Positions 1,692-31,844 of a stretch of 64,000 bases of DNA are shown in pieces (the stretch's first letter is position 1; every line of letters begins with the position of its first letter). The notes under the pieces were generated by a model. The model ran no database searches, was not told the DNA's origin, and worked only from the letters and a program-made list of their open reading frames with translations. The DNA is taken from the NCBI GenBank assembly GCA_051252005.1, contig JBPOEZ010000003.1, positions 164,984 through 228,983 on the forward strand, written 5' to 3'. The DNA comes from Alphaproteobacteria bacterium. GTDB taxonomy: Bacteria; Pseudomonadota; Alphaproteobacteria; Caulobacterales; Maricaulaceae. The translations under genes were made by a program, and so were the position numbers.

Positions 1692-1742
1692 AACATTACC
1701 AGCGGCTGTTTTGGAGCGATTTTAGGACGCTGGTAAGAGGAC
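1692..1742 (+). repeat. Leader-head repeat copy A (AACATTACCAGCGGCTGTTTTGGAGCGATTTTAGGAC...GAGGAC)
   Basis: Aligns by eye with 2445-2506, 31643-31704 and the reverse complement of 8065-8125. All share the same 5' boundary (AACATTACC). Confidence 0.65.
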
Positions 1743-1777
1743 CGTTATTTGAACAGACTAGGCTTCAGGCCCGAGAT

Positions 1778-2320
1778 TTAGTCTAGGGGCGGACCAGGAA
1801 AACTGCTCTCATGTCGTTTCATATCTATTTCAAAAGTTTTAGAAATAGTGGGGTCTCCAGATTTGCTCGGGAATTCAGCCTCCAAACGTATGCAGAGTTT
1901 TTCAATATCGCTTTCGATATATACTTTATTAATTGCTCTTGCAGAGGTGTCGTGGTTATAGGCATCTTCAGACTTTTTGATTTCAATTTCTCCCATCTCC
2001 ATTTTAACGGGCCTATCACATCCCCCTGAATATGCAGATATTCCCGATGTAATCGCATCATAACGGGTGTCGAGATACTCAGGATAGCGCGATATTCGTG
2101 CCGAAATCCAAAAATCATGGTCGTCCCAAGACGCTCCGCTTGATCCGGAGAATGCAGTAACGCTAGCAGACACATTCCAGCCCTCAAAACTGACATCATT
2201 GGTTTGCTTAAACACGCGGGTCTTATAAATCACGCAGCCGCTTAAGGTGACCATTAGTCCAACGAGGGCAAAATTTAGACTAAGACGTCCAAGCCATCTC
2301 TTCATGGTGAGTTGAATCAT
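1778..2320 (-). CDS. Hypothetical lipoprotein
   Basis: Track ORF. N-terminal signal with lipobox LSGC. No recognisable family. Confidence 0.6.
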   Translation of the reverse strand: MIQLTMKRWLGRLSLNFALVGLMVTLSGCVIYKTRVFKQTNDVSFEGWNVSASVTAFSGSSGASWDDHDFWISARISRYPEYLDTRYDAITSGISAYSGGCDRPVKMEMGEIEIKKSEDAYNHDTSARAINKVYIESDIEKLCIRLEAEFPSKSGDPTISKTFEIDMKRHESSFPGPPLD

Positions 2321-2444
2321 GACGTCTATTTCGTCCCTCAGTAAATATCGTTCGACCTAATATTTTTAATTCTTACTTTAAGTTAAAGATTATAGAAAAC
2401 CACCGAGAATTATCCCATTTCCGATAGATGGTGGCGTATCGACT

Positions 2445-2506
2445 AACATTACCGGCGGCCGTTTTTGGGCGACAAAGGCCTCTGGGCTAATGTCCGCAAT
2501 GAGGAT
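2445..2506 (+). repeat. Leader-head repeat copy B (AACATTACCGGCGGCCGTTTTTGGGCG...GCTAATGTCCGCAATGAGGAT)
   Basis: Same head as copies A, D and E. Its last ~22 nt (GCTAATGTCCGCAATGAGGAT) recur at 4996-5016, where the leader of recombinase module 1 resumes. Confidence 0.7.
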
Positions 2507-2560
2507 GATCTTCTCAATCAGAGGGCTGAGTCGGATTTAAAATTCTGAACCACATTCATG

Positions 2561-3304
2561 TTATTGATGTGGTTCAATGGGCGGAAGTGACATCCCGTAG
2601 GCAGCGTAGTCGCCAAGTCCTGAAGAACGGTAAGGTGCGTGAAAGTATCCGTTATCCCCCCACGCTGACCCCAAACTATTCTTTATTCTCCAAAGTCTCG
2701 ACGTATTGTCGTATCCAGTGATGACAACCATGTGACTGTATTTCACGCCGTTAGGGTTCACCACAAAGGGATCACGACCTGTCCAGTTTATAAATGCATA
2801 ATCAATATCCATTGCCGCCGCGACAGGCGATCCACTCGCCAGAGTATATTTGACTTGGTCATCACCGGAGCAAGGTAAAAAGACTGGCGCGTAAATGTCG
2901 CGAAGGATATCGCAATTATCACTATCCCACGGAACACTCCCTTGGCTTGCCCGCGGGACATAGGAATCACTCAATTGCATGGAGACCGTTTCTGGATCAG
3001 CTCCGTTGTCACAGTGGACACCAGAAGAACAATTGTGGATCCACGCGGCTCCCACATCATAAAGCTTATTTGTGATCGCCAGATGGTAGCTTTCTATCAG
3101 CGCTGCGAAAGAGAAAGCTGTGCAAGCGCCTGAGCAGGGCAATTGGCTTTTTACAGGCGAAATTCTGCCTTCATTCACGAGATTCACGGATGGGCGTGCT
3201 GACAATGGCAGAAACTTAAACTCTCTGCCTAAAAAGTCCCCGGGCTGGTAACGCGCAATGAAATCATTTTCGGGAGGTTTGAACTTTACGGGGTGATCTA
3301 TCAT
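2561..3304 (-). CDS. Papain-like (C1 family) cysteine peptidase
   Basis: Motifs SPVKSQLPCSGACTAFSF (Gln / catalytic Cys region), HMVVITGYD (His) and WRIKNSLGSAWGDNGYF (Asn/Trp region). No obvious signal peptide. The 4-nt ATGA overlap with the upstream gene suggests translational coupling. Confidence 0.75.
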   Translation of the reverse strand: MIDHPVKFKPPENDFIARYQPGDFLGREFKFLPLSARPSVNLVNEGRISPVKSQLPCSGACTAFSFAALIESYHLAITNKLYDVGAAWIHNCSSGVHCDNGADPETVSMQLSDSYVPRASQGSVPWDSDNCDILRDIYAPVFLPCSGDDQVKYTLASGSPVAAAMDIDYAFINWTGRDPFVVNPNGVKYSHMVVITGYDNTSRLWRIKNSLGSAWGDNGYFHAPYRSSGLGDYAAYGMSLPPIEPHQ

Positions 3305-4749
3305 CCTCCCTCTAGCTCCGCGAGACGTGCCGCCGTTTCGAGCTGGGCAATACGTGCCTGATCAACCAAAGTATCAATTGTCAACATATCGATCAATTGC
3401 TGGCTTGCGGTAACATCTGGCGGGTTTAAAGTGGCAAGCGCCTCGCGACGTGCGACCTCGTCTTGCAATGCCTTAAGTTCTGCAGCTGCTTCTACCTCGC
3501 GAGCGGCCTCTAGTGCTTGCACTTCCGTTTTAATCGCATCCACTGCTGATGTCAGGGCGGCAATTGGTGCGCCAACCTGTTTGTAGCCGGCTTTTGTCAA
3601 ATTGCCCTTTTTCGAAAACTCAATGGTATATTCAAGACTCTCGAATGGGGCAGCAGAAACGACTAATTTATCTATGTAGCCAAGCTGAGCAACCTTGGCG
3701 CGATGGACGTGAATTTCAGACATAGCTACGGATGCAGGATATGGAAATGGTTTTGATGGATCTTTAATTTTCTCAAAGACCAACCGTCCCGGTTGCGGGG
3801 TGCGATAGGAAATTCCTTTGGCATTGATTGTTTTTTTGTCATCGAGATTGTCAATGCCATTTGCGTTGCTATCGGCTTCAAGCTTTACAAAGACATACAT
3901 GCTCTGCTTTTGGGTCGTGGTTGGGCTATTGCCTGCCCACTTCTTCAGAGTTGCTTCGGGAAGAGCATAGGGGGTCTTGTTTTCCCGGTCAGAGCCTTTT
4001 AGCGGCCAGTAAATAGGTTTTGTAGTGTGAGATATTGGCTTTAGCAAATCGGCGACATGTGCAATTTGTGCTTGCACTGCTGCGTTTGCGTCCCTCACTT
4101 CTGTAAGCTTAGCTTTAATATTTGGATCAAGGGCTGGGTCACTGGTATCAACTATGCCTTTGAATCCAGCTACCAGTTTGTTTAATTCAGTTTTACGTTT
4201 ATTAAGCGCTGCTGTTCTTGTTTTAAGTTCAGCTAATCCTGCATTAGCATCAGCTACGGCTGCTGGAATGCCCGCAGCGACGTTACAAGCATAAACGGGT
4301 GTTAATCCGGTTCCGGCTGGTACCCCCAGCGCTGCGCCAGCTACTTTGATCGCAGTTAATAATGCTGGCCCCGCCTCATCTTTAACGCTGGCATTTACTG
4401 TTTTCAGTAAGCGCGTGTCTTCATAAAAAGTAACTTCGACACCTGCTGAATTAAACCATGTCGAAAGTGATTGCGGATCAATAACAAATCGCGCATCAGC
4501 ATCTTCAATAGACCTATCTTTAACCGCGAAAGATGTAACAATTTTCATTTCGGCAGCAATATTATTCGCTGGATCAGCCTTTATGCATTCTGCAACACGG
4601 CGCGTTATATTGAATTCGAATTGTGTTAGCGGCAAGACATGAACAAGTCCCGTTTGAGGACCGGCTTGGTATTCATAGGTGTTGAGTGTTGAGCTACATC
4701 CAATCAGAACAATTGTCGCTGGAATGCTAATTCGCTTAATTTGTTTCAT
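3301..4749 (-). CDS. Hypothetical lipoprotein with coiled-coil segments
   Basis: Signal plus lipobox VLIGCSS. Ala/Leu/Glu-rich heptad-like stretches in the middle and at the C-terminus. No family recognised. Confidence 0.6.
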   Translation of the reverse strand: MKQIKRISIPATIVLIGCSSTLNTYEYQAGPQTGLVHVLPLTQFEFNITRRVAECIKADPANNIAAEMKIVTSFAVKDRSIEDADARFVIDPQSLSTWFNSAGVEVTFYEDTRLLKTVNASVKDEAGPALLTAIKVAGAALGVPAGTGLTPVYACNVAAGIPAAVADANAGLAELKTRTAALNKRKTELNKLVAGFKGIVDTSDPALDPNIKAKLTEVRDANAAVQAQIAHVADLLKPISHTTKPIYWPLKGSDRENKTPYALPEATLKKWAGNSPTTTQKQSMYVFVKLEADSNANGIDNLDDKKTINAKGISYRTPQPGRLVFEKIKDPSKPFPYPASVAMSEIHVHRAKVAQLGYIDKLVVSAAPFESLEYTIEFSKKGNLTKAGYKQVGAPIAALTSAVDAIKTEVQALEAAREVEAAAELKALQDEVARREALATLNPPDVTASQQLIDMLTIDTLVDQARIAQLETAARLAELEGG

Positions 4750-4995
4750 GCTGCGCCCCTAAATGTAGTTCCAACTAATTAGAAATAGCTCACCAAACTC
4801 GTTTTAGAGACGTTAGTATTCCAAATAAGTACATCTTATGATAGAGCATTGCCTGCAATTCGTCTAGTATATTTTGTAGAGACTTTAATTATTGAGAGTC
4901 ATAGGGAGGCCATATCACATGCATTTGTTTTATAGATTTTCGTACTCTGGGATTAACTCAGCCAATCCCCTAGATTAATCAAAGTGAGAGGTTTT

Positions 4996-5155
4996 GCTAA
5001 TGTCCGCTTTGAGGATCTTTTTCCGTTTTCAACATTCTCACACAATCCACTGGACTTTGTGCGCAAAGGAAGCGGTAGTGTGTTGCGGCCCAATGTGAGG
5101 GTCTTGTCTCGGTAGTAGCGGCCACGATGTGTGGGCGTCATTTACGGAGATTGAA
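4996..5155 (+). promoter_or_regulatory. Conserved 5' leader of recombinase module 1 (3' part only; the head is missing)
   Basis: Highly similar at the nucleotide level to 31684-31844. Contains hairpin candidates (GGCCCA..AGGGTC) and an RBS GGAGA before the ATG at 5156. Confidence 0.6.
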
Positions 5156-5404
5156 ATGGACATTCAAACACAAAAACCCGAAATTAAAGCACCGCGTACT
5201 GGAAGCAAACAAGCCAAGCTCGTTGTCATGCTCTCGCGCAAAAACGGCGTTACACTTGCGAAGGCCAGCGAGACTTTAGGATGGCTGCCGCATACCACCT
5301 CCGCAACCATGACAGGGCTGCGTGGGCGCGGCTATGAGATCACGCGGATTAAACGCGAGGGTAAAGATACGCTGTACGTCATCCATCCTGACGAGGCTGA
5401 GTAA
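5156..5404 (+). CDS. DUF3489-like small winged-helix protein
   Basis: Track ORF 5129..5404. I prefer the ATG at 5156 because it follows GGAGA and matches the start of the paralogue at 31845 (MDxQTQ..IKAPR.GSKQAKLV). HTH-like GVTLAKASETLGWLPHTTSA. Confidence 0.75.
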   Translation: MDIQTQKPEIKAPRTGSKQAKLVVMLSRKNGVTLAKASETLGWLPHTTSATMTGLRGRGYEITRIKREGKDTLYVIHPDEAE

Positions 5405-5904
5405 TGCGGCGGGCGAGCAAGATCGCATCAGAAGTCGCCGAGCTTGAAACACTGGACCGCGTTGCCCTCGCCGCGCAGTGGGAAGCTCTAATGAAACGTT
5501 CGCCGCCTAAGGCCTGTAGCCGTGTGTTTCTCCTCAGGGCTTTATCCTATGAACTGCAAAGTAAGCATGCTCCTGATCTCAGCAAGACGGACATGAGGGC
5601 ACTCAAAGCAAGCTTGGGCAAAGTACCAAGCAGTGCCGTTGAGAATGACAGGGAAGAGGATGCTGCGACCACAACACCTAACGCCAAGACCAAGCCGAGA
5701 CGCAAGGCCCCTGCCCGTCTGGCCCTTGTGCCGGGTGCCCGACTAGTGCGGGAATGGAACGGACAGGCCTATACGGTCTCGGTGATCAAAGAAGGTTTTG
5801 TCTATAAGGACAGAACTTGGAGCTCGCTGAGCGCTATCGCCAAGGATATCACGGGCGCACATTGGTCTGGGCCTCGCTTCTTTGGCTTGGATAAGGCAGC
5901 CTAA
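5404..5904 (+). CDS. DUF2924-like protein
   Basis: C-terminal WNGQAYTVSVIKEGFVYKDRTWSSLSAIAKDITGAHWSGPRFFGL. TAATG overlaps with both neighbouring genes. Confidence 0.75.
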   Translation: MRRASKIASEVAELETLDRVALAAQWEALMKRSPPKACSRVFLLRALSYELQSKHAPDLSKTDMRALKASLGKVPSSAVENDREEDAATTTPNAKTKPRRKAPARLALVPGARLVREWNGQAYTVSVIKEGFVYKDRTWSSLSAIAKDITGAHWSGPRFFGLDKAA

Positions 5905-7598
5905 TGTCTTCCCAGCGCAAACGCTGCGCTGTTTACACCCGCAAATCAAGTGAGGAAGGTTTGCAGCAAGACTTCAACTCTCTGGATGCGCAGGCCGAGA
6001 GTTGCTCAGCTTATATTCTGTCTCAAGCGGGTGAAGGCTGGTCCAAGGTCGATAAGGTCTATTCTGATGGCGGTATATCTGGAGGCCATATGGATAGGCC
6101 CGGTTTGATTGCCTTGATCGCGGATATCAAAGCGGGGCTGATTGATATCATCGTCGTTTACAAAGTTGACCGACTAACACGGTCACTGGCCGACTTTGCG
6201 CGGCTAGTAGATGTCTTTGATAAACATGACGTCTCGTTTGTGTCGATCACTCAAGCGTTCAATACAACGACCAGCATGGGACGGCTAACGCTGAATGTCC
6301 TGCTCTCCTTCGCCCAGTTCGAACGGGAAGTGACGGCGGAGCGTATCAGGGACAAGATCGCAGCCTCAAAGAAACGGGGGCAATGGATGGGCGGCCTTCC
6401 ACCTCTTGGATATGATAATATTAACAAGAAGCTGGTGGCAAATTCTGATGAAGCAAACACAGTCCAGCATATCATGACGCGGTATGTAGAGCTTAAGTCT
6501 GTCACAAAGCTCAAGCATGAACTTGACCTTGATGGTTATCTTACCAAAACCCGCATAACAAGGAAGCAGTCTCAGACAGGCGGCAAGCCCTTTAGCCGCG
6601 GCCACCTCTACAAGCTCCTTTGCAATCCCGTTTACATCGGCAAGACCACACATAAAGGCGTGGTCTTTGACGGACAGCATGATCCTATCGTTGATCAGGA
6701 ATTATGGAATTCGGTACAAGCAGGGCTCAAAGCAAATGCTCCTAAGCGAAGGCGTTCCATTAACATCGCATCGAATAGTCTTCTCACAGGGATGATCTTT
6801 GAAGATAGCGGAGACCGCCTTTCTCCCGTGCATTCTAGAAAGCCCAATGGAAGGCGTTACCGCTATTACATCTCGGCGCGATTATCAAAAGGCGAAATGG
6901 ATGACGGGACGGCCTTGAGGCTTCCGGCCAAACAGATTGAGGGTCAGGTGTTTAGGCGTCTGACAGACCTATTAAGCAATACAGGCCAATTGATGGGTAT
7001 GGTAGACGGCTCACACCTGACACCCCAACAGGTTTCAAAGGTAGAGCAGCATGCAAGCGAGCTAGCCGCGCGCCTCACATCAAACTGCGTTGAAACGCAG
7101 AGAACCCTACTGATTGATATCATTCAACGGATTACCATCTCGCCCAAGGACCTTATGTTGGAGCTTCGGAGGGACGCATTATTTCCAGATGGCATTTGCT
7201 CCCAAAAAGTCAAACTCGAAAACGACGCCATTACGCTCGCCTATCCGCTACAGATGAAGCGGCGCGGCATTGAGACTAAACTCATCATTGGCGGCGTGGC
7301 GTTAGGGCAGCCAGACCCCGAACTTATCAAACTTATTGCCAAGGCCAGAAACTGGTATGGTGGCCTTAAGACGGGACGCTTCAAATCTATCAAAGACATC
7401 GCAGCAATTGAAAAAATGGATGACGGTGATGTCAGCAGAACCTTATCCCTCGCCTTTCTTGCCCCCTCGATCATTCATGACATCATTGCTGGTAATCATG
7501 CTATAAATCTCACGCCAAGAGACTTAAGCCGCAAAGCTAATAGGCTTCCATTAGATTGGGCGCAGCAGCGCAGCTTTCTAGGCATGAAAGCTACCTAA
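5904..7598 (+). CDS. Large serine recombinase (resolvase/invertase N-domain plus recombinase domain)
   Basis: CAVYTRKSSEEGLQQDFNSLDAQ (catalytic Ser region), VVYKVDRLTRS, GHLYKLLCNPVYIGK. 564 aa. No CxxC pairs where a zinc ribbon would normally sit. Confidence 0.9.
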   Translation: MSSQRKRCAVYTRKSSEEGLQQDFNSLDAQAESCSAYILSQAGEGWSKVDKVYSDGGISGGHMDRPGLIALIADIKAGLIDIIVVYKVDRLTRSLADFARLVDVFDKHDVSFVSITQAFNTTTSMGRLTLNVLLSFAQFEREVTAERIRDKIAASKKRGQWMGGLPPLGYDNINKKLVANSDEANTVQHIMTRYVELKSVTKLKHELDLDGYLTKTRITRKQSQTGGKPFSRGHLYKLLCNPVYIGKTTHKGVVFDGQHDPIVDQELWNSVQAGLKANAPKRRRSINIASNSLLTGMIFEDSGDRLSPVHSRKPNGRRYRYYISARLSKGEMDDGTALRLPAKQIEGQVFRRLTDLLSNTGQLMGMVDGSHLTPQQVSKVEQHASELAARLTSNCVETQRTLLIDIIQRITISPKDLMLELRRDALFPDGICSQKVKLENDAITLAYPLQMKRRGIETKLIIGGVALGQPDPELIKLIAKARNWYGGLKTGRFKSIKDIAAIEKMDDGDVSRTLSLAFLAPSIIHDIIAGNHAINLTPRDLSRKANRLPLDWAQQRSFLGMKAT

Positions 7599-7633
7599 GC
7601 TAACAACTCCCCCAACACTTACATCATTGCAAC

Positions 7634-7831
7634 ATGCAGACTGCATCAGGCCGCAAACATCTTGGACGCTAAATTTGGGATCTGAGACGCTCTCGGAAAT
7701 AGGGCTAATTATCGGGCATTTTCCGTCTCATTTCGCGTCTCTACTCTGCATATATCCGGCTAAACCCCCGTTACTAGGGGACTTTCTCAGTCAGGACGTA
7801 TCGGCGGTGAAAAGCGCAGCGTGCGTGGTAG
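7634..7831 (+). repeat. Conserved non-coding arm downstream of recombinase 1 (copy 1 of 2)
   Basis: About 198 nt, near-colinear with 34344-34541. The similarity ends exactly after GTGCGTGGTAG. Contains GAGACG/CGTCTC hexamers and a CCCC..GGGG hairpin. Confidence 0.8.
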
Positions 7832-7839
7832 TGGACGCA
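7822..7839. other. attP-like junction between the two islands (TGCGT-N8-ACGCA dyad)
   Basis: The sequence tgcgtggtagtggacgca straddles the point (7831/7832) where homology with the tRNA-proximal arm stops. Confidence 0.5.
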
Positions 7840-7866
7840 GTCCGCAGATAGCCCGTCTCACGCCCA

Positions 7867-8058
7867 AATTCCCTGCTTTACAGGGAATTAACAGGGAATA
7901 TATTTGTTTTTCACCATAAATTCCGAATTCACCCCCTGCAAGCCACTGAAAACGCTATGAAATTTGGAGGTTTCCCTGCCTAAATTAACAGGGAATTTTA
8001 TTTTGCAAGCAGGGAAAGCTGATCGGGCGGCAGGGAATTACAAATTGGAAACAGGGTA
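7867..8058. repeat. Iteron-like cluster of CAGGGAA(T) motifs (8 copies)
   Basis: Copies at 7867-7875 (reverse complement), 7881-7889, 7892-7899, 7972-7978 (reverse complement), 7989-7997, 8010-8016, 8031-8038 and 8052-8058 (CAGGGTA). The first two form a perfect 9-bp inverted repeat AATTCCCTG/CAGGGAATT. Confidence 0.8.
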
Positions 8059-8064
8059 TATTAA

Positions 8065-8125
8065 AAACGCATAAGCCGCTGACATGGGAGTCCTAAACCG
8101 CCCAAAATAAGCCGCTGGTAATGTT
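8065..8125 (-). repeat. Leader-head repeat copy D (inverted orientation)
   Basis: The reverse complement reads AACATTACCAGCGGCTTATTTTGGGCGGTTTAGGACTCC..., which matches copies A and E. ATAAGCC(G/A)CT also recurs at 8071, 8107 and 8152. Confidence 0.7.
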
Positions 8126-8203
8126 TGTGAATACGGCAGAATTCGTCCAAAATAAGCCACTCATTTTATCTCCTACCAAACCCTGCGGACCTCAACTTGG
8201 TGG

Positions 8204-8983
8204 TTAAATTGCTTTCGCAATCATCCATATCCCCATGCCAATCATGGCTAGGTTTTCGGTGAGTGATACAAAGCCCAGCGGTACATTCGCCCCGCCGCCA
8301 ACACAGGCGCATTTTAGATCACGCTTATCGACATAGACCGCTTTAATAACTGAGATCGCGCCAATCGTCCCAATGAACAAAGCAATAGGCGCGGCTATCA
8401 ACCCAAATATTCCGCCTGCAACCATCAGGATTGCGGCCAGCGCTTCTGCAAACGGATAGACATAGGAATAACGCACAACCCGCCGCGCTAAAATATCATA
8501 GCCGACAAACATATTTGAGAAGGTTTCCAAATCTCGTAATTTGAGCATGGCCAGCATGCCCATTGAGAAGGCAATAAACCATTCCAGTGCTCGCAGATTG
8601 AGTACATCGCCTGATGTCGCCCAATTGGCCGCAATCGCGAGCAGTGCGGAGATATAGAAGACGACTAAAACAGGCGTGTAAGTCTTCTTATCCGGGTCTT
8701 TCACCTTATACCCGAAGTTCTCTCGCAGAGCATCAAAGCCGCCGATACGGTCACCGTCGATGAAAGTTTGCGGCGTGGTCTTTACATCATGCTTTTCTTT
8801 AAAGGCATCCGTGTCGACGCGGTTTGTCAGCCAATTATCCTCAACCTCAAACCCTTTGCGTTTGAGAAGGTCCACAGTCTTGATACCAAAGGGACAGATA
8901 TGTTTATCCGTCACCATGCGGTAGACAACGGCCTTTTTACCTTGAGACGTCTCTTTCACGGCAAGTTTGTCTGAAATACTCAT
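8204..8983 (-). CDS. Glutaredoxin-like domain fused to a MauE/DoxX-type membrane domain
   Basis: N-terminal Grx fold (VVYRMVTDKHICPFG...TPQTFIDGDRIGGFDAL) followed by about 4 TM helices typical of MauE. Confidence 0.7.
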   Translation of the reverse strand: MSISDKLAVKETSQGKKAVVYRMVTDKHICPFGIKTVDLLKRKGFEVEDNWLTNRVDTDAFKEKHDVKTTPQTFIDGDRIGGFDALRENFGYKVKDPDKKTYTPVLVVFYISALLAIAANWATSGDVLNLRALEWFIAFSMGMLAMLKLRDLETFSNMFVGYDILARRVVRYSYVYPFAEALAAILMVAGGIFGLIAAPIALFIGTIGAISVIKAVYVDKRDLKCACVGGGANVPLGFVSLTENLAMIGMGIWMIAKAI

Positions 8984-9005
8984 AACTGTCTCCTTCCAGT
9001 TTGAA

Positions 9006-9155: not shown

Positions 9156-9195
9156 GAAAAACCTTTCCTATGGATTGCATTTCCATATACATATA

Positions 9196-9212: not shown

Positions 9213-9293
9213 ATTAAAGAGGCGGTATCATTTTTCTCTTATGCGGTGATCCAGCTAGCTTTCGGCAGTCATCTTGCCCAGCACTAGATAGCC

Positions 9294-23595: not shown

Positions 23596-26500
23596 TCATT
23601 CAGCCAAAGCCGCGTTACCTTCATGCAACGTCTCAACCATAGAATGGTGCCCGCCGGGTTTTGGCGCGAACCATTTATGGAGCGCGGGCATAACAAGGAG
23701 CGTGAGTAAGGTTGATGTTACTAAGCCGCCAATGACCACGGTTGCCAATGGGCGTTGCACTTCTGCGCCGACGCCTGTCGCGAGCAATAAAGGCGCAAGC
23801 CCCAGTGCGGTTGTCAGGGCCGTCATTAAGACGGGGCGCGCCCGAAGTCCGGCGGCATCAATCGCGAGCGTATCGCGGTCGCGTCCGGCGCGGGCAAAAT
23901 CATCCATGAAGCTCACCAGCACCATGCCGTTTCCGAGCGCAATACCAAACAGCGCAATGAAACCAACTGTTGCAGGCACTGAAACAGGCAGGCCCGTTAT
24001 CCACAGCGCCAAAGCACCGCCCGTCAAAGCCAGCGGGATATTCAACAAGATGAGTATAGCCGATTTCATTCTGCCGAATGTGATGAGCAATATGAAGAAC
24101 ACAATGGCCAGCGTGATCGGAATGACAACGGCAAACCTTGCATTGGCCTGTTGTTGCAATTCGAATTGCCCGCCCCAAATCAGGCGATAGCCCGGCGGTA
24201 GATTAAGCTGTTCGTCCGTCAACGCCTGCGCGTCTAAAACGAAAGACCCAATATCACGTCCGCGTACATTGGATTGCACCGTGATGAAACGCTCACCATC
24301 CTCTCGCGTGATCTGGCGCGGACCGATAACGGTTTCAATACTGGCAACGGTCTCTAAAGGCACGCGCGCACCAGTAGAGGATTTTAAAATTATCCGACTA
24401 ATTGCCTCCGGCGTATTTCTGTCCTCGGCATGGAAGCGCACAACAATCGGGAATTGCCTAACACCCTCAAAGAGCGCACCCGCTTCAGCGCCGCCAACAG
24501 AGGCACGCAGGGCATCCAACGCATCTTCGACATCCAAACCGTAACGGCCCAACGCTGCCCGATCCATTGTCACAACGAGCTGCGGAGCGCCTGTGATCTG
24601 GTCGGCCTGCACTTCGGCGGCTCCCTCGACTTGCTGTAGCAGAGCCTGCAAAACCTTTGACTGCTCAAGCAAAACATCAGAATCGGGTCCAAATATTTTG
24701 ACGGCTAATTCTGCTCGGGTGCCTGTTAGTAGCTCATCAACTGACATCGCAATGGGCTGACCAATATTAACGACAATTCCCGGATAACTTTCTAGGTTTT
24801 CAGAAATGCCAGCACGCAAATCCTCAGCCGACAGTCCAGCCCGCCATTGATCTTGCGTCTTAAGCTCAACAAAGCTTTCCGCACTATTGGTCGGATCGGC
24901 ATGAGCACCGACTTCGCCGCGCCCGATACGTGTCACAATAGATTTGATTTCAGGGAAGGTTTCCAGAAGACGTTTTTCGACACGCGTTGTGGTCGCAGAC
25001 GCTTCGGTCAATGAAATAGACGGCGCCATAGTCATGCGCAGTAAAATATCCCCTTCTTCTAAGGCTGGCGTAAATTCAGAGCCAAGGCGCGACCCCGCCA
25101 ATCCTCCGGCAAGCAATAAAATGCCGGCAAGCACTATGGCGGCAAATCTTTTCCTCACGAAAAAGCTTGAAGCCATACTTACATATTTGGCTAATGGGTC
25201 TGGCTTGTCAGATTTACGTTTAGATGAGCGGCGCATGAGTCCATTGGCCATCGCAGGCGCGATAAGCGCGGCATAAAAAAGAGACCCTGTCATCGCCAAG
25301 GCAGCCGAAGCAGCCAGCGGCCTAAATGTCTTACCTTCTACGCCTTGAAGAGAAAATAAGGGCAAAAAGACAACGATAACCACGATCACGGCGGCAACCA
25401 GAGGCGCAATAACCTCAGCCGATGAGCGCGCGACAATCGTGCGTGTGTCAACACTGAAATCGCTTTCTCGCAATCCCCGGTCAACATTCTCGGTAATGAC
25501 AATAGCGCCGTCCACCATCATACCGATGGCAATAGCCACGCCGCCCAATGACATGAGGTTAGCGCCTATCCCCAAGACATGCATCGCAATGAACGCAAAG
25601 CCAACCGAAAACGGAATTGAGAGGACGACGACCAAGCTTGGACGCCAACCGCCTAGGAAAATAAATACGACCACCGCTACCAGTAGAGCGCCTTGCCACA
25701 AAGCCGTTGTGACGGTGGCTGACGCTTTATTGACTAGATTGCCTTGATCATAATAGGGAATGGCTGTGACGCCTTCGGGGAGTGTTGTATTGATTTCATC
25801 GAAACGGGTCTGCACTTTGGCAATCACGTCAGATGTGTTGGTTCCGTAGAGCTTTAAGACGAGACCTGCGACGACTTCACCTTCACCATTGGCTGTCGCA
25901 AGGCCTTGGCGCACACCGCCGCCAATAATGATTTCGCCCAAATCGCGAACCCGAATAGGACGTCCATCATCAACATTAACAACGATTTCGGCTAAGTCTT
26001 CGACTGACCGCGCAAGACCTACGCCGCGAACCGTATATTGCTCCGCGCCGATTTCAAGAAATTGAGCGCCCTCGGTTTTATTTCCGCGCTCCAGCGCCGT
26101 CATCACATCACCGATTTGAATATCATAGGCAAGTAAGGCATCCGGATCTAGCTGAACCTGATATTGTTTCTCAAAACCGCCGAGCGACAAAACTTCAGTA
26201 ACGCCAGGAACCGTTTGCAATTGATATTTAATTATCCAGTCTTGTATTTCGCGCATATCAACAAGACTTCGTGTGCCCGTTTCATCCGCCAGTCTGAAAT
26301 ATAGAATAATGCCGAGGCCGGTAGAAATTGGCCCCATTTGCGGGTCGCCAAACCCGTCGGGAATATTGCCGCGCGCTTCCGCTAACCTCTCGCCGACAAC
26401 CTGCCGGGCAAAGTAAACATCCGTGCCGTCTTCAAAGTATATATTGACCACTGAAAGGCCAAAGTTTGAGACCGAACGCATGTTTTTAAGCTTTGGCAAG

Positions 26501-26721
26501 CCTGCCATGGCTGTCTCAATCGGATAGGTGACGTAGCGTTCGACTTCTTCAGGGGCGAGGCCTTCGGTTTCGGTGAACACCTGAACCAGTGAGGGTGTAA
26601 CGTCGGGAAAGGCGTCAACAGGCAATGCGCGGAACGCGTATATGCCGCCAAGTGTAATGGCGAGTGCGGCGATTGCAGCCAACAGGCGGCCTCCCGCAAT
26701 GCGATGCATAAAATTAAACAT
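23596..26721 (-). CDS. czcA: CzcA-type heavy-metal efflux RND pump
   Basis: 1041-aa HME-RND protein in a czcCBA-ordered operon. It lacks the CusA Met triad. Confidence 0.85.
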   Translation of the reverse strand: MFNFMHRIAGGRLLAAIAALAITLGGIYAFRALPVDAFPDVTPSLVQVFTETEGLAPEEVERYVTYPIETAMAGLPKLKNMRSVSNFGLSVVNIYFEDGTDVYFARQVVGERLAEARGNIPDGFGDPQMGPISTGLGIILYFRLADETGTRSLVDMREIQDWIIKYQLQTVPGVTEVLSLGGFEKQYQVQLDPDALLAYDIQIGDVMTALERGNKTEGAQFLEIGAEQYTVRGVGLARSVEDLAEIVVNVDDGRPIRVRDLGEIIIGGGVRQGLATANGEGEVVAGLVLKLYGTNTSDVIAKVQTRFDEINTTLPEGVTAIPYYDQGNLVNKASATVTTALWQGALLVAVVVFIFLGGWRPSLVVVLSIPFSVGFAFIAMHVLGIGANLMSLGGVAIAIGMMVDGAIVITENVDRGLRESDFSVDTRTIVARSSAEVIAPLVAAVIVVIVVFLPLFSLQGVEGKTFRPLAASAALAMTGSLFYAALIAPAMANGLMRRSSKRKSDKPDPLAKYVSMASSFFVRKRFAAIVLAGILLLAGGLAGSRLGSEFTPALEEGDILLRMTMAPSISLTEASATTTRVEKRLLETFPEIKSIVTRIGRGEVGAHADPTNSAESFVELKTQDQWRAGLSAEDLRAGISENLESYPGIVVNIGQPIAMSVDELLTGTRAELAVKIFGPDSDVLLEQSKVLQALLQQVEGAAEVQADQITGAPQLVVTMDRAALGRYGLDVEDALDALRASVGGAEAGALFEGVRQFPIVVRFHAEDRNTPEAISRIILKSSTGARVPLETVASIETVIGPRQITREDGERFITVQSNVRGRDIGSFVLDAQALTDEQLNLPPGYRLIWGGQFELQQQANARFAVVIPITLAIVFFILLITFGRMKSAILILLNIPLALTGGALALWITGLPVSVPATVGFIALFGIALGNGMVLVSFMDDFARAGRDRDTLAIDAAGLRARPVLMTALTTALGLAPLLLATGVGAEVQRPLATVVIGGLVTSTLLTLLVMPALHKWFAPKPGGHHSMVETLHEGNAALAE

Positions 26722-26732
26722 ATCTGATTTCC

Positions 26733-28007
26733 TTAATGTCCGTGACCATCGCCAAAGGCATCTTTTTCGAGCTGAGCTTTAAGCGTGAACGCACCTTCTG
26801 AGACAAAACTATCTCCGGCGCGTAGGCCTGACTGTATTTCGACGTAACCACCGGATTCAGATCCAATCGCCACAGATTGCGGGCTAAATCCGCCCTCGAC
26901 AGGCACGAAGACAGATATTTTGTTTTCGACTGTTTGAACGGAGCCGAGCGGAACACGTAGAACCGGCTGGGATTGCCCGACGCTGATGTCTGCTGTTACA
27001 AACTGCCCGGGGCGCAAGTTACCACCGGGATTATCTAGGATAACCCGCGCCGTGGCTGTGCGTGAGGTCTCATTAATTATGGGAAGAATAAAGGCGACGC
27101 TCGACTCTGCCAAAATATCGCCGTCATCAGATTTAAGAACAACGCGCGCCTGTTTTTTTATGCGGCTGATATCTTGCTTATAAACACCAATATCTGCCCA
27201 AACTACACTATCGTCAGCTATCGTGAACAGCGTTTGCGAACTTGCGTCGCCTGCGGAAACGGTTTCACCTAACGTCACGCTACGGCGGACTATTGTGCCG
27301 CTGATCGGCGCTCTCAAATATGAGTTGGAATTATCGCCGTCATCTGCCGTTGCGACTTTTTCCAATGCAGCATCGCTCACCCCCGCAGCATGGAGCTCAT
27401 TCTCAGCAGCGTCTTTTGCAGCTGTCATGGCTTCAAAATTGGCGCGGGCGGCTTGAACGTCAGCCTCGGCAGTAATTTTTTCAGCAAAGAGGTTTTCTTC
27501 TCGCGCCAGCGCTTTACCCGCTAAGGCCGATTGAGTTTGCGCTTTCAGCCAAACCGCTTTCAACCCTGCTAATTCGCGGCTGGAAATCAGCGCCAGCGTA
27601 TCCCCGCGCTTTACAGCATCGCCTTCGCTTGCATAAAGTTTGGCAATGATACCGCTGACCCTCGGCGATATATTGGCGACCCGATCTGCATCAAAACGGA
27701 TTTCAGCCGGTAGGCTGATATATTGACCTAGCTCTCCGAGCGTTGCTTGGGACACAACTATACCGGCTTCACGCGCGGCAGGCTCGGTCAATTTCACGAT
27801 GTCTTCATCACCGTCTTCGTCGCCATGCTCATCACCATGTTCGTCTTCATGGCCACCCTTATCAGCTCCATGATCATCGGAGCTTTGGGCCGAAGTTGGT
27901 GATATATTGGTGTCGGATTGTTGAATAACCCCTTTGTCGGCTCCGCAGGCTGTCAAAAGCAAAGCGGTTACGACTAAGGCCGTATTCAGTAGAAAATACT
28001 TTTTCAT
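26733..28007 (-). CDS. czcB: RND adaptor subunit (CzcB-like) with His/Asp/Glu-rich N- and C-termini
   Basis: Lipobox LTAC. DDHGADKGGHEDEHGDEHGDEDGDED. Ends in GDGHGH. Confidence 0.85.
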   Translation of the reverse strand: MKKYFLLNTALVVTALLLTACGADKGVIQQSDTNISPTSAQSSDDHGADKGGHEDEHGDEHGDEDGDEDIVKLTEPAAREAGIVVSQATLGELGQYISLPAEIRFDADRVANISPRVSGIIAKLYASEGDAVKRGDTLALISSRELAGLKAVWLKAQTQSALAGKALAREENLFAEKITAEADVQAARANFEAMTAAKDAAENELHAAGVSDAALEKVATADDGDNSNSYLRAPISGTIVRRSVTLGETVSAGDASSQTLFTIADDSVVWADIGVYKQDISRIKKQARVVLKSDDGDILAESSVAFILPIINETSRTATARVILDNPGGNLRPGQFVTADISVGQSQPVLRVPLGSVQTVENKISVFVPVEGGFSPQSVAIGSESGGYVEIQSGLRAGDSFVSEGAFTLKAQLEKDAFGDGHGH

Positions 28008-29299
28008 TGGATGTCTCCATTAAAGGGGGACGCACCTGTAAGGCTGCGTAATTTCATGTCTTGAGTGTTGACGATGCGCGCTGCATCAATGACCGCAAGC
28101 CCGGCTTCAATCAGGGCTTTACGGGCATTGAGCGTTGTCGTGAGGTCAAACTTTCCTGCCTGATACCCTTTGACAGACGCGTCATAGGCTGACCGTGCGT
28201 CAGGAAGCGCTTCATTTTCCAAAAGTATGAGCTGCTTTTGCGCAGATATGAGCTGCGCGCGCGCGGCATTTTGTTGTGAGCGCAGATCACGTTCAACCGC
28301 AACGCGGTTAAGTATTTCTGCCTGATGCCGAAACTCGGCGGCTTTCACGGCACCCTTGTTTCGATCAAATATTGGAAAGGGAACGCTCACGCCAAATAAC
28401 AGGGCGTTATCATTACCCTGCTCAAATCGCCTCAAACCGGCACTGAGGGTTATATCAGGCATAGATTGGGACTTAGCCAAGTCTTGATTAGCTTCGCTGA
28501 CAACAGTCTGTGCGCTCGCCATATTCAATAAAGGATGGCCTGCAATCCGGCTTTCGCCAATCACCGAAGACGGCAATGGCGCTGGCGTTCGGGCAATAGG
28601 CGCGGCAAATTTGGGATCAGCGTTGCCCCACATGCCCGCCAACATATAACGGAGTGTGTCCGTGCGCGCATTTGCGCGTTCAGCGGCGGCTTTCAGAGCC
28701 ACAGCATCAGCCCGGGATCTCGAAAGCTCAGGCGGAGCGCTTGCTCCGGCTTTCACCCGCTTACCTACAGTTTCTACGAGCGTTTGAGCTAAAAGAGCGG
28801 ACTCATTTGCAAAATTCGCGACCTGAAAAGCGGCCTCCAATTCATAGAATAAGATTGCCGCTTCGAGTTGGGTTTCCCGCAATATAGCGCTGCATTCTGC
28901 ACTCGCGAGTGCAGCATTCGCGCTTGCTGCGTCTCTACGAAGACGACGTTTATCGCCAAGCTCTAAAGTTTGAGCGAAAGAGAACGTCGCTTCCGATTGC
29001 CCAAATCCTGACAGAGCGCCCGATCCTGCAAAGTTTTCCAGTTCAACACCCACGACAGGGTTAAGTCGGCGTCCGGCTTGCTCCACTTCGGCCTGACGGG
29101 CTTTCGTTTCTAAAGCGGCGCGCCGAACCTGCGGAGAGGCATTAGTGATTTCTGCCATAACGGCAGGCAAAGTAAGCGGCGCGCCGGGCATAATTGCCGA
29201 CGCAGATTGATTCGACTCACCGCAGGGAGCCGCGACCGCAACACCCGCAAAGGCGGTTGCGGTCAGAACGCATACCGCGCCCCGTAATAATTTTAACAT
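28004..29299 (-). CDS. czcC: TolC-family outer membrane factor (CzcC-like)
   Basis: OEP repeats, and a 4-nt overlap with the adaptor gene. Confidence 0.8.
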   Translation of the reverse strand: MLKLLRGAVCVLTATAFAGVAVAAPCGESNQSASAIMPGAPLTLPAVMAEITNASPQVRRAALETKARQAEVEQAGRRLNPVVGVELENFAGSGALSGFGQSEATFSFAQTLELGDKRRLRRDAASANAALASAECSAILRETQLEAAILFYELEAAFQVANFANESALLAQTLVETVGKRVKAGASAPPELSRSRADAVALKAAAERANARTDTLRYMLAGMWGNADPKFAAPIARTPAPLPSSVIGESRIAGHPLLNMASAQTVVSEANQDLAKSQSMPDITLSAGLRRFEQGNDNALLFGVSVPFPIFDRNKGAVKAAEFRHQAEILNRVAVERDLRSQQNAARAQLISAQKQLILLENEALPDARSAYDASVKGYQAGKFDLTTTLNARKALIEAGLAVIDAARIVNTQDMKLRSLTGASPFNGDIQ

Positions 29300-29364
29300 T
29301 GAAATTTATTCCTCGTGATAACCTAGAGACAAAACCAAGTGACAACTTGGCTATTTGCTAAAGG

Positions 29365-29721
29365 TTAGGCACGGGGAGGACGATACAGACCCATAGGAGC
29401 CGCGCGAGGCGCGACGTCGTAGACATTAAGACTATATCCGAGCCTGGCTGATATAGTATCAGCAGCCGACGCCAGTTGGAGCGAGGTTGCATGGATATGA
29501 CAGCTTCCACAGTTGTGAGCATGATGATCATGTGGCGGCTTGTTCGGTCGTTCCTGCTTTTGATCAACAGAGGCTGAGGACACAGCACCTTCATCCTGAC
29601 AAGCAATCTCATCCGGCTCTACGGGATGAATATCCGGCGTCACCGTTGCAAAGCTCATCATAACCGCCACGCAGACAGTCAGCCAAAATTTGGCAAGGGA
29701 TATGTAGCGTGTTGCAAACAT
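29365..29721 (-). CDS. CzcI-like small periplasmic His/Cys protein
   Basis: N-terminal TM/signal segment, HDHHAHNCGSCHIH motif, C-terminal RPPRA. First gene of the czc operon. Confidence 0.5.
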   Translation of the reverse strand: MFATRYISLAKFWLTVCVAVMMSFATVTPDIHPVEPDEIACQDEGAVSSASVDQKQERPNKPPHDHHAHNCGSCHIHATSLQLASAADTISARLGYSLNVYDVAPRAAPMGLYRPPRA

Positions 29722-29727
29722 TGGGTC

Positions 29728-29758
29728 TAATTAGCACCTACAGTCACTGGAGGGTCAA
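29728..29758 (-). promoter_or_regulatory. MerR-type promoter (TTGACC-N19-TAATTA) with dyad CCTCCAGTGACTGTAGG
   Basis: Read on the minus strand. The 19-bp spacer contains an imperfect copy of the operator found at 30245-30259. Confidence 0.6.
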
Positions 29759-29776
29759 GAGAATAATACAGTCTGC

Positions 29777-30226
29777 TTATCCGATAGGTGTAAATTCTTT
29801 GTGAGTGTGATGATCGTCCAGACATTCGTCATGATTTGAAAGTGTTTGCAGTACTTTGCAATTCGCAATAACGCCGCCTGCGCAAGTAGACACCATGTGT
29901 TTTAATTCTGCCTCTAACGCTTCGAGTTGACTAAGCCGCCGCCTAACATCAGCGAGTTGTCGCCGCGCTATGCGGTCAACGCTGGCGCAATCAGTACCGG
30001 GGCTTTCTTGAAGATCAATCAAGTCTCGGATAGCTTCAATGGGAAAGCCTAGGTCTCTTGCGTGACGGATAAAATTTAAGCGCTCAACCGCAGCCTCGTC
30101 ATATATACGTTGCCCGCTGCCCGTTCTGTCAGGCTCCCGAATGAGTCCTATAGATTCATAGTAACGAATGGTCGTGACTTTTACGCCGCATTCGCGGGAC
30201 AGGATGCCAATGGTTTTCCGGCTCAT
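29777..30226 (-). CDS. MerR-family metal-responsive regulator (ZntR/CadR-like)
   Basis: The N-terminal HTH KVTTIRYYESIGLI. Cys in PGTDCAS plus CAGGVIANC in the metal-binding loop, a pattern expected for divalent-metal sensors. Confidence 0.8.
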   Translation of the reverse strand: MSRKTIGILSRECGVKVTTIRYYESIGLIREPDRTGSGQRIYDEAAVERLNFIRHARDLGFPIEAIRDLIDLQESPGTDCASVDRIARRQLADVRRRLSQLEALEAELKHMVSTCAGGVIANCKVLQTLSNHDECLDDHHTHKEFTPIG

Positions 30227-30238
30227 ATCATTTTTCTC

Positions 30239-30269
30239 TTGCCTCTACAGTGACTGTAGACAGTAGATT
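30239..30269 (+). promoter_or_regulatory. MerR-type promoter TTGCCT-N19-TAGATT with a perfect dyad CTACAGT-G-ACTGTAG
   Basis: Lies between the divergent merR-family gene and the CDF gene. The 19-bp spacer is the MerR-family hallmark. Confidence 0.7.
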
Positions 30270-30302
30270 ATTCTCGAAATTGCACAAGAGGACGATGATA
30301 AG

Positions 30303-30935
30303 ATGAGTGGATGTTGCGACGATAAAGTTTTTGAGGGTATGTCAGACGGCTATAAACGCGCCTTGATGACGGTAATCCTGATCAATGCTATCATGTTCTT
30401 TGTGGAGATAACAGCGGGTCTCAAATCAGGTTCCCAAGCTCTACTCGCTGACTCTCTGGATTTTGCAGGCGATAGCGCGACCTACACGATTAGCTTCTTG
30501 GTGATCGGCGCGTCATTGCGCACGCGCGCCATGGCATCTCTCTTTAAGGGGGGCAGCCTTGCTGTCATTGCCATGATTATCTTGGCATCGTCTTTATATC
30601 GCTTTTTAGGTGACACAGTCCCGGCGGCGGAGACTATGGGCCTCATCGGGTTTCTGGCCCTGCTGGCCAATCTCACGAGCCTGTTGGTTTTAATGCGTTG
30701 GCGCGATGGCGATTCAAATGTGCGGTCTGTCTGGCTTTGTTCGCGCAATGACGCCATTGGTAATGTCGGCGTTATCATCGCCGGGATCGTGGTCGCAATA
30801 ACGGGCGCGGCTTGGCCAGATTTACTGGTCGCTATCCTACTTGCAACACTGTTCTTACGCTCTGCCGTCTCAATCGTTTCACAGGCGCGAGCCGAACTTA
30901 AATTTGGTGAGGTTATCCAACATGATAAATGCTGA
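30303..30935 (+). CDS. Short cation diffusion facilitator (CDF) transporter, membrane domain only
   Basis: LLADSLDFAGDS and SRNDAIGN motifs. About 6 TM helices and no cytoplasmic C-terminal domain. Confidence 0.7.
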   Translation: MSGCCDDKVFEGMSDGYKRALMTVILINAIMFFVEITAGLKSGSQALLADSLDFAGDSATYTISFLVIGASLRTRAMASLFKGGSLAVIAMIILASSLYRFLGDTVPAAETMGLIGFLALLANLTSLLVLMRWRDGDSNVRSVWLCSRNDAIGNVGVIIAGIVVAITGAAWPDLLVAILLATLFLRSAVSIVSQARAELKFGEVIQHDKC

Positions 30936-31485
30936 AACAGGTCTGATTGGACTGATGCTCTTTAATGGCTTTCTATCAATTCCATTTGGGATTCTCGCTA
31001 AACGCTCCTTTGCAAAAAACGGTAATCTCACGCCTTTTCTGGCCGCTTGGTCTGGCGTTGCGATGCACGGCCACGCTTTGATGACCTTTGGGATTGCATG
31101 GATAAACCGAGGAACCCTTTACAAGCCGCTATATTGGACGGTTTTGCCGGGGCTTCTGGTCCTAACAGTGGGCGCTTATATTATCTATCTTGGGCGGAAG
31201 GCTTATGGTGATCAATCACGGGTCTACGGGCTAAAAGAAGATTCCCTGATTACTCACGGCATTTATACCCGATCTCGAAACCCGCAATATTTTGGTTATG
31301 GCCTCATGTTCTTGGGAGCTGCGATTGCGTCAGGGTCAATGCTGGCCTTTGTCTTCGTCGCTGTGTTTGCCCTCATGGTGCATGTTGGAATAACAAAGGT
31401 TGAAGAACCGCATCTTGAATGCATATTTGGCAGACCATTTTCAGACTATAAAAAAAGGGTTGGTCGATATTTTACTTTATTGTGA
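30922..31485 (+). CDS. ICMT / phospholipid-methyltransferase-family membrane protein
   Basis: Track ORF 30841..31485. The ATG at 30922 is preferred because it overlaps the CDF gene by only 14 nt. RSRNPQYFGYGLMFLG motif. Confidence 0.65.
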   Translation: MINAETGLIGLMLFNGFLSIPFGILAKRSFAKNGNLTPFLAAWSGVAMHGHALMTFGIAWINRGTLYKPLYWTVLPGLLVLTVGAYIIYLGRKAYGDQSRVYGLKEDSLITHGIYTRSRNPQYFGYGLMFLGAAIASGSMLAFVFVAVFALMVHVGITKVEEPHLECIFGRPFSDYKKRVGRYFTLL

Positions 31486-31642
31486 AAAGAGATTTGCCTT
31501 TCAAGGTGACTACTTTCAAACTTAAGGCTGTCAGCGATAGTCTTAGCATCGCCTCAAGAATAGTACGGGGCTAATGACCAATTTGGGGATGGACTTTCTT
31601 TTTTTAAGTGCCCGAAATAGATCGAATACTCTGCATATCGCA

Positions 31643-31844
31643 AACATTACCAGAGGCCGTGTTTGGGCGTTTTAAGACTCCGAGCTAAGGTCGTCTTAGA
31701 GGATCTTTTTCCGTTTTCCATTATCTTCCACAACCCACTGGACTTCCTTCGCAAAGGAAGCAGTAGTGTCTTGCGGCCCTGATGTGAGGGCCTTGTCTCA
31801 GTAGTAGCGGTCACATTGAGTGATCGCCAATCACGGAGACCAAA
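31643..31844 (+). promoter_or_regulatory. Complete conserved leader of recombinase module 2 (head = repeat copy E, 31643-31704)
   Basis: Begins with AACATTACCAGAGGCCGTGTTTGGGCG. Hairpins CTTCCTT-cgca-AAGGAAG and GGCCCT-gatgtg-AGGGCC. RBS GGAGA before the ATG at 31845. Confidence 0.65.

Follow-up and report, generated by a model that had tools for sequence, protein, structure and literature searches.

What is the nature of a short repeat that recurs at the module borders of a genomic island, and by which process did it come to lie there? The question is raised by a 64-kb stretch of DNA from an alphaproteobacterium of the family Maricaulaceae (contig JBPOEZ010000003.1 of assembly GCA_051252005.1, positions 164,984 to 228,983 of the forward strand), which is called the window in the following and whose positions are counted from its first letter. 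Left of a tRNA-Met gene the window contains an island with metal-resistance modules and two copies of a trio of genes encoding DUF3489, DUF2924 and a large serine recombinase, and within this island lie five copies (A, B, D, E, and F) of a border repeat that we named the head. A preliminary description of this DNA had regarded the repeat as the 5' end of the recombinase leader and as an element terminus. Comparison with other loci and contigs (given L-numbers, L001 etc.) leads to a different view. The repeat is a member of a large family of short sites at which marine bacteria of the Caulobacterales type appear to exchange cassettes, and it is probable that the head is a site-specific, double-stranded recombination site delimiting these cassettes.

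The repeat in the window is not random. An exact 15-mer, AACATTACCRGNGGC, is found at 1692, 2445, and 31643 on the forward strand and at 8111-8125 on the reverse strand, with 0.78 matches expected by chance when up to two mismatches are allowed. A repeat search of the window returned the same direct repeat family (1690/2443/31641) together with two inverted pairs, D with E (8087-8130 and 31638-31681, 44 nt, 82%) and A with D (1690-1722 and 8095-8127, 33 nt, 85%). Moreover, a profile built from 156 unique copies, all taken from other contigs, detects the four strong copies A, B, D, and E with E-values of 1e-22 to 9e-16, and F as a decayed copy of which the centre and right arm alone score. After F, the next match in the window has an E-value of 5.6, and nothing in 34.6-64 kb scores. 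Every head copy is located in the island left of the tRNA-Met; the 29 kb to its right consist of core genes, e.g., a cytochrome oxidase operon and TldD, and contain neither a head copy nor a recombinase. The five copies of the preliminary description are thus real, the inverted pairing of D and E can be confirmed, and its own caveat that the similarities might be no better than chance does not apply.

With the A of AAC as position 1, the head can be divided into several segments. Positions -1 to 15 (A-AACATTACCAGCGGC) are near-invariant, positions 16-19 are variable, positions 20-27 are again near-invariant (TTTGGGCG, or TTGGAGCG), and conservation is moderate at positions 28-41 (nTTTARGvCnCTC). 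In some heads CTAAnGTCCGCnnTGAGGAT follows, and beyond that similarity ends entirely. Left of the head, conservation continues for another 35-45 nt, in two flavours; for copy A, 1656-1691 are 88-95% identical to many metagenome copies. Therefore, the supposedly fixed outer boundary between CA and AACATTACC is no terminus. Similarly, what had been described as an inner truncation is a right arm that forms a variable half-site, the long form of which ends with GAGGAT. A dyad-symmetric site was also considered and dropped, the apparent centres being divided between 24.5-25.5 and 32 in a systematic test. Likewise, the head as a structured RNA was rejected for lack of an Rfam match: at the gathering score of Rfam 15 the tRNA-Met is the sole match in the window, and at E<=1 there is none in 31500-31900 or 1600-2600. 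In a plasmid database the head was unmatched, and the recombinase found distant matches only.

Outside the window the head is abundant and arranged in arrays. A scan of metagenomes with a degenerate core pattern gave at least 120 contigs, and the profile recognizes 248 copies in 118 contigs, 79 of which contain two or more. The orientation of the heads is uniform in 78 of these 79 contigs, the sole exception being the window, owing to D. The median spacing between heads is 822 nt (interquartile range 565-1157), and tandem doublets 45-110 nt apart are also present (17 of 130 spacings are below 150 nt). It was considered whether replichore or transcription sets this polarity, which was rejected, as it is unlinked to GC skew (33 contigs with positive and 27 with negative skew on the head strand) and to gene strand (50 open reading frames, ORFs, on the head strand, 66 on the opposite one). 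The 116 ORFs between heads gave Pfam matches to only 41 families, all of them accessory or DUF, and the larger ORFs that flank the arrays encode housekeeping proteins, e.g., thiolase, CoA ligase, FabD, BamB, and TldD. All-against-all clustering of 586 ORFs revealed no recurrent protein family and no recurrent recombinase. Some arrays adjoin mobility genes and are thus also carried on integrative/conjugative elements: TrbI/VirB9 conjugation genes adjoin the array in L056 (6863-9117), a 465-aa DUF6538 tyrosine integrase with a DUF3363 relaxase is located beside the array in L111 (3275-4672) and L154 (9758-11155), and L088 encodes a 189-aa resolvase/invertase (3263-3832) about 400 nt from a head. 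The latter two enzymes were also considered as the array enzyme and rejected as single cases.

The flanks of the heads show where DNA has been exchanged. Thirteen non-redundant pairs of copies have a common left flank (at least 93% identity) and unrelated right flanks. Each of them is identical through position 19 or further, and divergence sets in at position 20 (two pairs), at 28-30 (six) or later (five, whose right arms are similar by coincidence). In the five pairs that share the right flank and have unrelated left flanks, the differences at positions 16-19 follow the left flank. Both patterns together place the exchange within positions 20-27. Exchange left of position 16 is almost never seen, although homologous recombination over 27 identical bases should often give it. 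Furthermore, L124 and L142 have several kb of flanking DNA at 90-93% identity and carry unrelated inserts of 0.68 and 0.82 kb, respectively, between two heads, which on this alignment shows cassette replacement between heads, and L069, L145, and L076 have common cassettes in changed order. The idea that the repeat is a recombination hot spot for the exchange of cargo is therefore correct insofar as the breaks fall inside the repeat, but it is not specific to the serine recombinases with which it had been connected. From these chimeric half-sites we infer that the exchange is enzymatic and site-specific.

Whole modules have been rearranged at the heads as well. In a metagenome-assembled genome (MAG) of the Maricaulaceae (L009/L158), the DNA corresponding to 21403-30903 of the window is present at 92% identity and inverted in situ, flanked on one side by the end of the copper module that carries the acyltransferase and on the other by the recombinase leader. 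One breakpoint of this inversion lies inside F and the other inside E, and the end with the gene for the PEMT-like protein retains a complete head. In L150, the same PEMT end with its head is followed by unrelated DNA. In the relatives L159 and L163-L167 the metal genes are present without any head and czc and cop are contiguous; in the five contigs L163-L167 the stop codons of PEMT and MauE are 36-40 nt apart, and L159 has a MerR and arsenic-resistance module between PEMT and MauE. In the window, PEMT adjoins E and MauE adjoins D, so that the unit E-backbone-att-iterons-D occupies this spacer of a circularly permuted metal block. This fits the excised circle of the preliminary description, in which the backbone is bounded by D and E. 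The spacer after PEMT in the head-less L163 (11181-11215) and L159 (10138-10165) contains CCAAACCGTTTTT, which reads as the head core minus its middle and could be due to chance or be a footprint.

A mechanism can be proposed from these observations. The site would span about 50-110 bp and comprise a conserved left arm (AACATTACCAGCGGC plus four variable nt), the invariant crossover segment TTTGGGCG, and the variable right arm, which is lengthened in some copies. A recombinase would swap DNA inside the crossover segment, and since this lies in the middle of the site, the left arm would move with the left DNA and the right arm with the right DNA. As circular cassettes are inserted, excised, and exchanged time after time, arrays of sites with the same direction would result. 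In the island, the sites would delimit a one-gene cassette, the protease cassette, the copper and Zn/Cd/Co modules, and the two serine-recombinase backbones, and the island would have grown and been reshuffled at them. The trio would integrate the whole island at a different site, the 3' end of tRNA-Met, and would be a passenger or neighbour of the head system rather than its owner. Going further, the heads can tentatively be assigned to a gene-capture system of marine Caulobacterales (Algimonas/Litorimonas-like Robiginitomaculaceae, Maricaulaceae) that resembles integrons and has so far not been described, with double-stranded sites, a mid-site crossover in TTTGGGCG, cassettes in either orientation, related variants AGCGRCCG-N4-5-GGGGCGAnTTTAAGCCGCTC in other genera and an enzyme other than IntI. 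This enzyme would most likely be a tyrosine recombinase of about 210 aa that consists of the catalytic domain only and has a head-like site at its own stop codon; the trio is the less likely choice. With all these parts taken jointly, this assignment is possible rather than probable. No description of such same-direction arrays was found in the literature.

The features of the island are compiled in the table; its blocks were assigned via Pfam. The Pfam matches confirm the functional blocks between which the copies had been reported to sit, but the border between protease operon and module 1 is marked only by a truncated right arm.

Features of the island in the window, with positions, strand, and E-value of the head profile
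Feature	Position	Strand	Description	E-value
Head A	1650..1762	+	Pre-head flavour 1 GGCAAACCGGACCTCAGCGAGTGCGGAATTT, core AACATTACCAGCGGCTGTTTTGGAGCG, right arm ATTTTAGGACGCTGG	3e-20
Single-gene cassette between A and B	1763..2413	-	180-aa ORF 1778-2320 without Pfam match ("lipoprotein" of the preliminary description)	
Head B	2414..2515	+	Long right arm complete (..GGCCTCTGGGCTAATGTCCGCAATGAGGATG)	9e-16
Protease cassette	2516..4995	-	Papain-family C1 peptidase 2561-3304 and 482-aa ORF 3301-4749	
Truncated head	4996..5018	+	Distal long right arm GCTAATGTCCGCTTTGAGGATC only, fused to leader 1	
Recombinase module 1	5019..7598	+	Leader, DUF3489 5129-5404, DUF2924 5404-5904, large serine recombinase 5904-7598	
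Conserved 3' flank of module 1	7599..8071	+	Ends GTGCGTGGTAG (7834), then TGGACGCAGTC and CAGGGAAT iterons; attP-like	
Head D	8072..8170	-	Only inverted copy	1e-22
Copper module	8171..21372		MauE/glutaredoxin, CopD, CopC, CsoR-type repressor, CusCBA, CusF, PepSY_TM, acyltransferase 3	
IS3-family element	20148-21268		Within the copper block 8171..21372	
Head F	21373..21429	+	Left arm decayed (..GCGAGCGGCCGTAGTTGG); centre and right arm intact (CGATTTTAAGCCGCTCAG)	0.0012 (21389-21429)
Zn/Cd/Co module	21430..31604		P-type ATPase, CzcCBA-type RND pump, MerR regulator, CDF transporter, PEMT-like protein	
Head E	31605..31721	+	Pre-head flavour 2, core AACATTACCAGAGGCCGTGTTTGGGCG, long right arm ending GAGGATC into leader 2	3e-17
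Recombinase module 2	31722..34302	+	Leader, DUF3489 31845-32090, DUF2924 32093-32608, large serine recombinase 32608-34302	
Island/chromosome junction	34303..34612		Conserved 3' flank ending GTGCGTGGTAG, then 3' end of tRNA-Met	
tRNA-Met	34536-34612	-		

The protease cassette is bracketed by a 23-nt direct repeat, GCTAATGTCCGC(A/T)(A/T)TGAGGAT(G/C), at 2485-2507 and 4996-5018, which corresponds to the distal right arm in head B and in the truncated head at leader 1. Either a long head received the protease operon, or a second head has lost its left half. Head D has its left arm and pre-head towards the copper module and its right arm towards the iterons. The merR-family gene of the Zn/Cd/Co module is flanked by a 30-nt inverted repeat (29738-29767 and 30230-30259, 87% complementary), which looks like duplicated MerR operator palindromes of the CTACAGTnnnnnACTGTAG type for divergent czc/CDF promoters. 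The source contig continues to the left of the window with 4.1 kb (L168 1-4097) that encode an M78 peptidase, a helix-turn-helix (HTH) protein, an N6/N4 methyltransferase, and DUF5681; the SLFN/DUF2075 helicase comprises 659 aa, exceeding the ORF called in the window. In the related MAG (L158 11469-14982), methyltransferase and DUF5681 genes with 79% DNA identity adjoin the right arm of a head, and M78 peptidase and HTH genes are their neighbours there as well. The methyltransferase/DUF5681 block is a further module met in two contexts. In the core region, an 868-aa ORF (46445-49051) contains an in-frame 33-nt tandem repeat in four or five copies at 48179-48325 (ERA(M/L)ERAEEQRE-like).

Since the preliminary description had derived the head from the recombinase leader, the trio has to be considered separately. 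The catalytic domain of its recombinase matches the TP901-1 integrase, and the best named family is CcrB, with a score below the cut-off; judged by these matches it is a bona fide large serine recombinase. The homology between modules 1 and 2 extends from the distal right arm of the head (4996/31684) to GTGCGTGGTAG (7834/34544). In five or six loci (module 2, L001, L003, L007, L009, and L169) this latter point coincides with the 3' end of tRNA-Met. In module 1 and in L002 of Algimonas arctica (9865-10330), GTGCGTGGTAG is instead followed by TGGACGCAGTC and a set of CAGGGAAT iterons in an attP-like arrangement. A 3' flank of 230 nt is conserved downstream of the recombinase (7599-8071, 34303-34545, L002) with repeated GAGACG/CGTCTC. 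The different contexts of this flank suggest attR in the one case and an intact attP-like site in the other, and also tandem or nested elements. From its position, the GTGCGTGGTAG junction is evidently the recombinase's own site, and it is unlike the head: the head weight matrix gives negative scores there, no better than background. Contrary to the preliminary description, the head is not an element terminus. A resemblance of the left arm of E to the att arm of the recombinase of module 2 (14/20 positions by eye) was also considered, and was rejected because a weight-matrix scan was not significant.

In eight aligned trios the conservation of the leader begins at CACTGGACTT (31741), about 100 nt downstream of the start of the head. 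The conserved core covers about 105-115 nt 5' of DUF3489 (window 5049-5128 and 31741-31844; L001, L002, L003, L007, L009, and L030) with the pattern CACTGGACTT..GCGGTAGTGTG.TGCGGCC..GTGAGGGCCTTGTCTCGGTAGTAGCG.TCACA..GTGTGG.CGCC..CGGAGAC.AAATG, is without Rfam match, and may be a regulatory RNA or operator region. A head at the leader is present only in module 2 and L003, with remnants at module 1 and L009 (which form a clade with module 2), and is absent from this position in L001, L002, L007, L030, and L169. L170-L174 are trios without a head within 10 kb, and in L169 heads are located only 6 kb upstream and in opposite orientation. Conversely, the trio is encoded in none of the 120 head-bearing metagenome loci among the matches listed. 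With heads lacking a trio and trios lacking a head, both are independent entities that meet in flexible regions, and the head is not the beginning of the leader. No account of DUF2924/DUF3489 trios was found in the literature. In L001 of Algimonas arctica, the 3' half of another tRNA gene (TGGTGCCCCACACGGACTCGAACC...) is located at 1868-1917 just upstream of the trio leader, so that the trio lies between this tRNA fragment and tRNA-Met; the approximately 1.9 kb upstream hold a single unannotated ORF.

A lead to the enzyme comes from L169, which encodes a 207-aa tyrosine recombinase (5552-6175) with a head-like core 3 nt 3' of its stop codon and an inverted head-like core about 90 nt upstream. 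The protein has a catalytic domain only, is Xer/invertase-like, scores far under every family cut-off, and is not IntI. Its homologues in L177-L182 (L177 2434-3075) have GAGCGGCGCTCTTGGGGCGATTTTAAGCCGCTAAGC (22 bits) 2 nt 3' of the stop codon, with further head-like sites of the same orientation among small ORFs downstream, and the arrangement in L175 (10001-10642) is similar. These tyrosine recombinases of 207-213 aa belong to a family with thousands of relatives at 60-95% identity across phyla; no member is encoded in the window. The position of the sites makes the family a suggestive, yet unproven, candidate for the head enzyme, with a lineage-specific link.

Several points weigh against site-specific exchange by such an enzyme. 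No recombinase is tied to the head sites, the tyrosine-recombinase lead comes from few lineages, and distant homologues in IMG/VR (L183-L204) carry GGTTGTCAGGGCTGCAACAGCAGCCCTGTGCC at the same 3' place without arrays. The dyad symmetry and the hairpin potential of the head are weak, and its architecture points to no recombinase class. The sharpness of its conservation is partly a matter of construction, because at least one copy in each contig had to match the scan pattern, which prescribes positions 1-26. One of the left-sharing pairs, L095/L105, differs at positions 17-19, and in L009/L158 the junction at the leader consists of right arm, centre, and once more right arm, with small indels, which is not what a clean reciprocal exchange would give. 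Finally, neither an excised circle nor an occupied/empty-site allele pair was found in the comparison data, which are metagenome contigs mostly shorter than 15 kb.

Some of these points would suit a passive dispersed repeat in the manner of repetitive extragenic palindromes (REP), bacterial interspersed mosaic elements (BIME) or miniature inverted-repeat transposable elements (MITE), which is spread by transposition or conversion and serves homologous recombination as an anchor. The head is very abundant, intergenic, located beside housekeeping genes at many loci, sometimes arranged in tandem doublets, and without adjacent recombinase in most contigs, and the missing allele pair is also in line with this explanation. 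However, a passive repeat accounts neither for the uniform orientation in all but one of the multi-copy contigs, unlinked to skew or gene strand, nor for the cassette-like gene content between copies, nor for exchange points that cluster at 20-27 instead of being scattered over the whole 27-nt identity. In its structure the head differs as well: single-strand DNA folding of eight copies gave z-scores of -3.2 to +0.4 and thus no stable hairpin, six of the eight being no better than shuffles, and the longest perfect stem is on average 5.3 nt in heads versus 4.7 nt in shuffles. Moreover, the right end is variable instead of defined, the inner variants segregate with the flanks, and a target duplication is not seen. 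We regard a passive repeat as unlikely. The preliminary description had mentioned a generic REP/MITE-type repeat without recombinase link as its own counter-hypothesis, and half of this turned out to be appropriate, since the head occurs at dispersed places and independently of the serine recombinase (at least 120 head-bearing contigs lack the trio); its behaviour, however, is unlike REP or MITE.

Less probable still is that the head is a terminus or attachment-type site of serine-recombinase elements, with the trio capturing or fusing cargo in the style of Ccr and the staphylococcal cassette chromosome (SCC). Heads or remnants are indeed located 52-74 nt from the conserved leader core in module 2, module 1, L009, and L003, backbone 2 is enclosed by D and E in the inferred circle, at the PEMT/MauE spacer of the head-less relatives, the heads of L002 lie downstream of the attP-like site like D does, and CcrB is the best named relative, although far under the family cut-off. 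This proximity is not general, as can be seen from the metagenome loci without trio, from the trios without nearby head in L001, L007, L030, and L170-L174, and from the distant, opposite heads of L169, and the junction that the recombinase does use has a different sequence. Besides, arrays with one direction are unexpected from canonical large serine recombinases, which are not known to recombine identical hybrid sites. It is very improbable, finally, that the heads represent attC sites of integrons and their arrays integron arrays or clusters of attC sites lacking integron-integrases (CALINs). Same-direction short sites that separate cassettes of about 0.8 kb, mostly of uncharacterised function, might suggest this, and so might the invariant AAC at the left edge and the sequence GGGCG/TT at the inferred crossover, which recalls G/TTRRRY. 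But in 70 copies viewed there are no complementary R''/R' outer boxes and no far-end GTT, the single strands fold no better than shuffles, and the exchange takes place in the middle of the core and not at the end of the site, with the halves travelling with their respective flanks. Cassette genes occur in both orientations (50 same, 66 opposite), and no IntI-type integrase was found in the 64-kb window or among the recurrent families of the 586 ORFs, a search that did not cover the array origins in complete genomes.

Integrons are the textbook system for the capture and shuffling of single-gene cassettes, and they are reportedly not found in Alphaproteobacteria (Cury et al. 2016). If the heads are sites of cassette exchange, the strategy of cassette capture would have evolved more than once, in a second system unrelated to integrons. 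This would account for the assembly of flexible islands, including metal resistance, in alga-associated marine bacteria, and a new pair of site and recombinase would become available for genome engineering. The head profile offers a way to detect cassette arrays that tools of the IntegronFinder type would miss. For the window, two layers of mobility can be set apart: the serine recombinase integrates the island at tRNA-Met, and something else shuffles the modules at the heads.

Compared with known systems, the heads share with REP/BIME and MITE that they are short, abundant, intergenic, and sometimes tandem, but they lack a stable hairpin, the occurrence in two orientations or as paired REP sequences (REPIN), a fixed right end, and a target duplication, and their internal variants segregate with the flanks. 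For attachment sites (attL/attR) of the trio element, one pair at its ends would be expected, whereas one island contains five heads. SCCmec-type islands are more similar, with a large serine recombinase (the best named match is CcrB), a single chromosomal site, tandem modules bordered by a direct repeat, and two recombinase modules per island. The border repeats of SCC are copies of the attachment core, however, whereas the heads are unrelated to the tRNA-Met junction, hundreds of them are located away from any such recombinase, and their cassettes are mostly single genes. The pdif modules of Acinetobacter plasmids also consist of genes bounded by short sites in various contexts, with the enzymes (XerC/XerD) encoded elsewhere; pdif sites are 28-bp XerC/XerD sites of alternating orientation, whereas the heads are longer, one-way, and without Xer-type arms. 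The shufflon sfx sites of the tyrosine recombinase Rci are asymmetric like the heads, with one conserved arm and a conserved spacer and one variable arm, but they are inverted and allow only inversions within one gene cluster, whereas the heads are direct and separate unrelated genes. From integron arrays the heads differ by the lack of the attC palindrome, of R''/R' boxes, of a stable single-strand fold, and of an IntI in the window, by the crossover in mid-core, by genes in both orientations, and by the host group, the Alphaproteobacteria. Common to both are same-direction short sites, cassettes of about 0.5-1.2 kb whose diverse genes are for the most part uncharacterised in function, the replacement of cassettes between strains, and sites each of which is a chimera of the neighbouring units.

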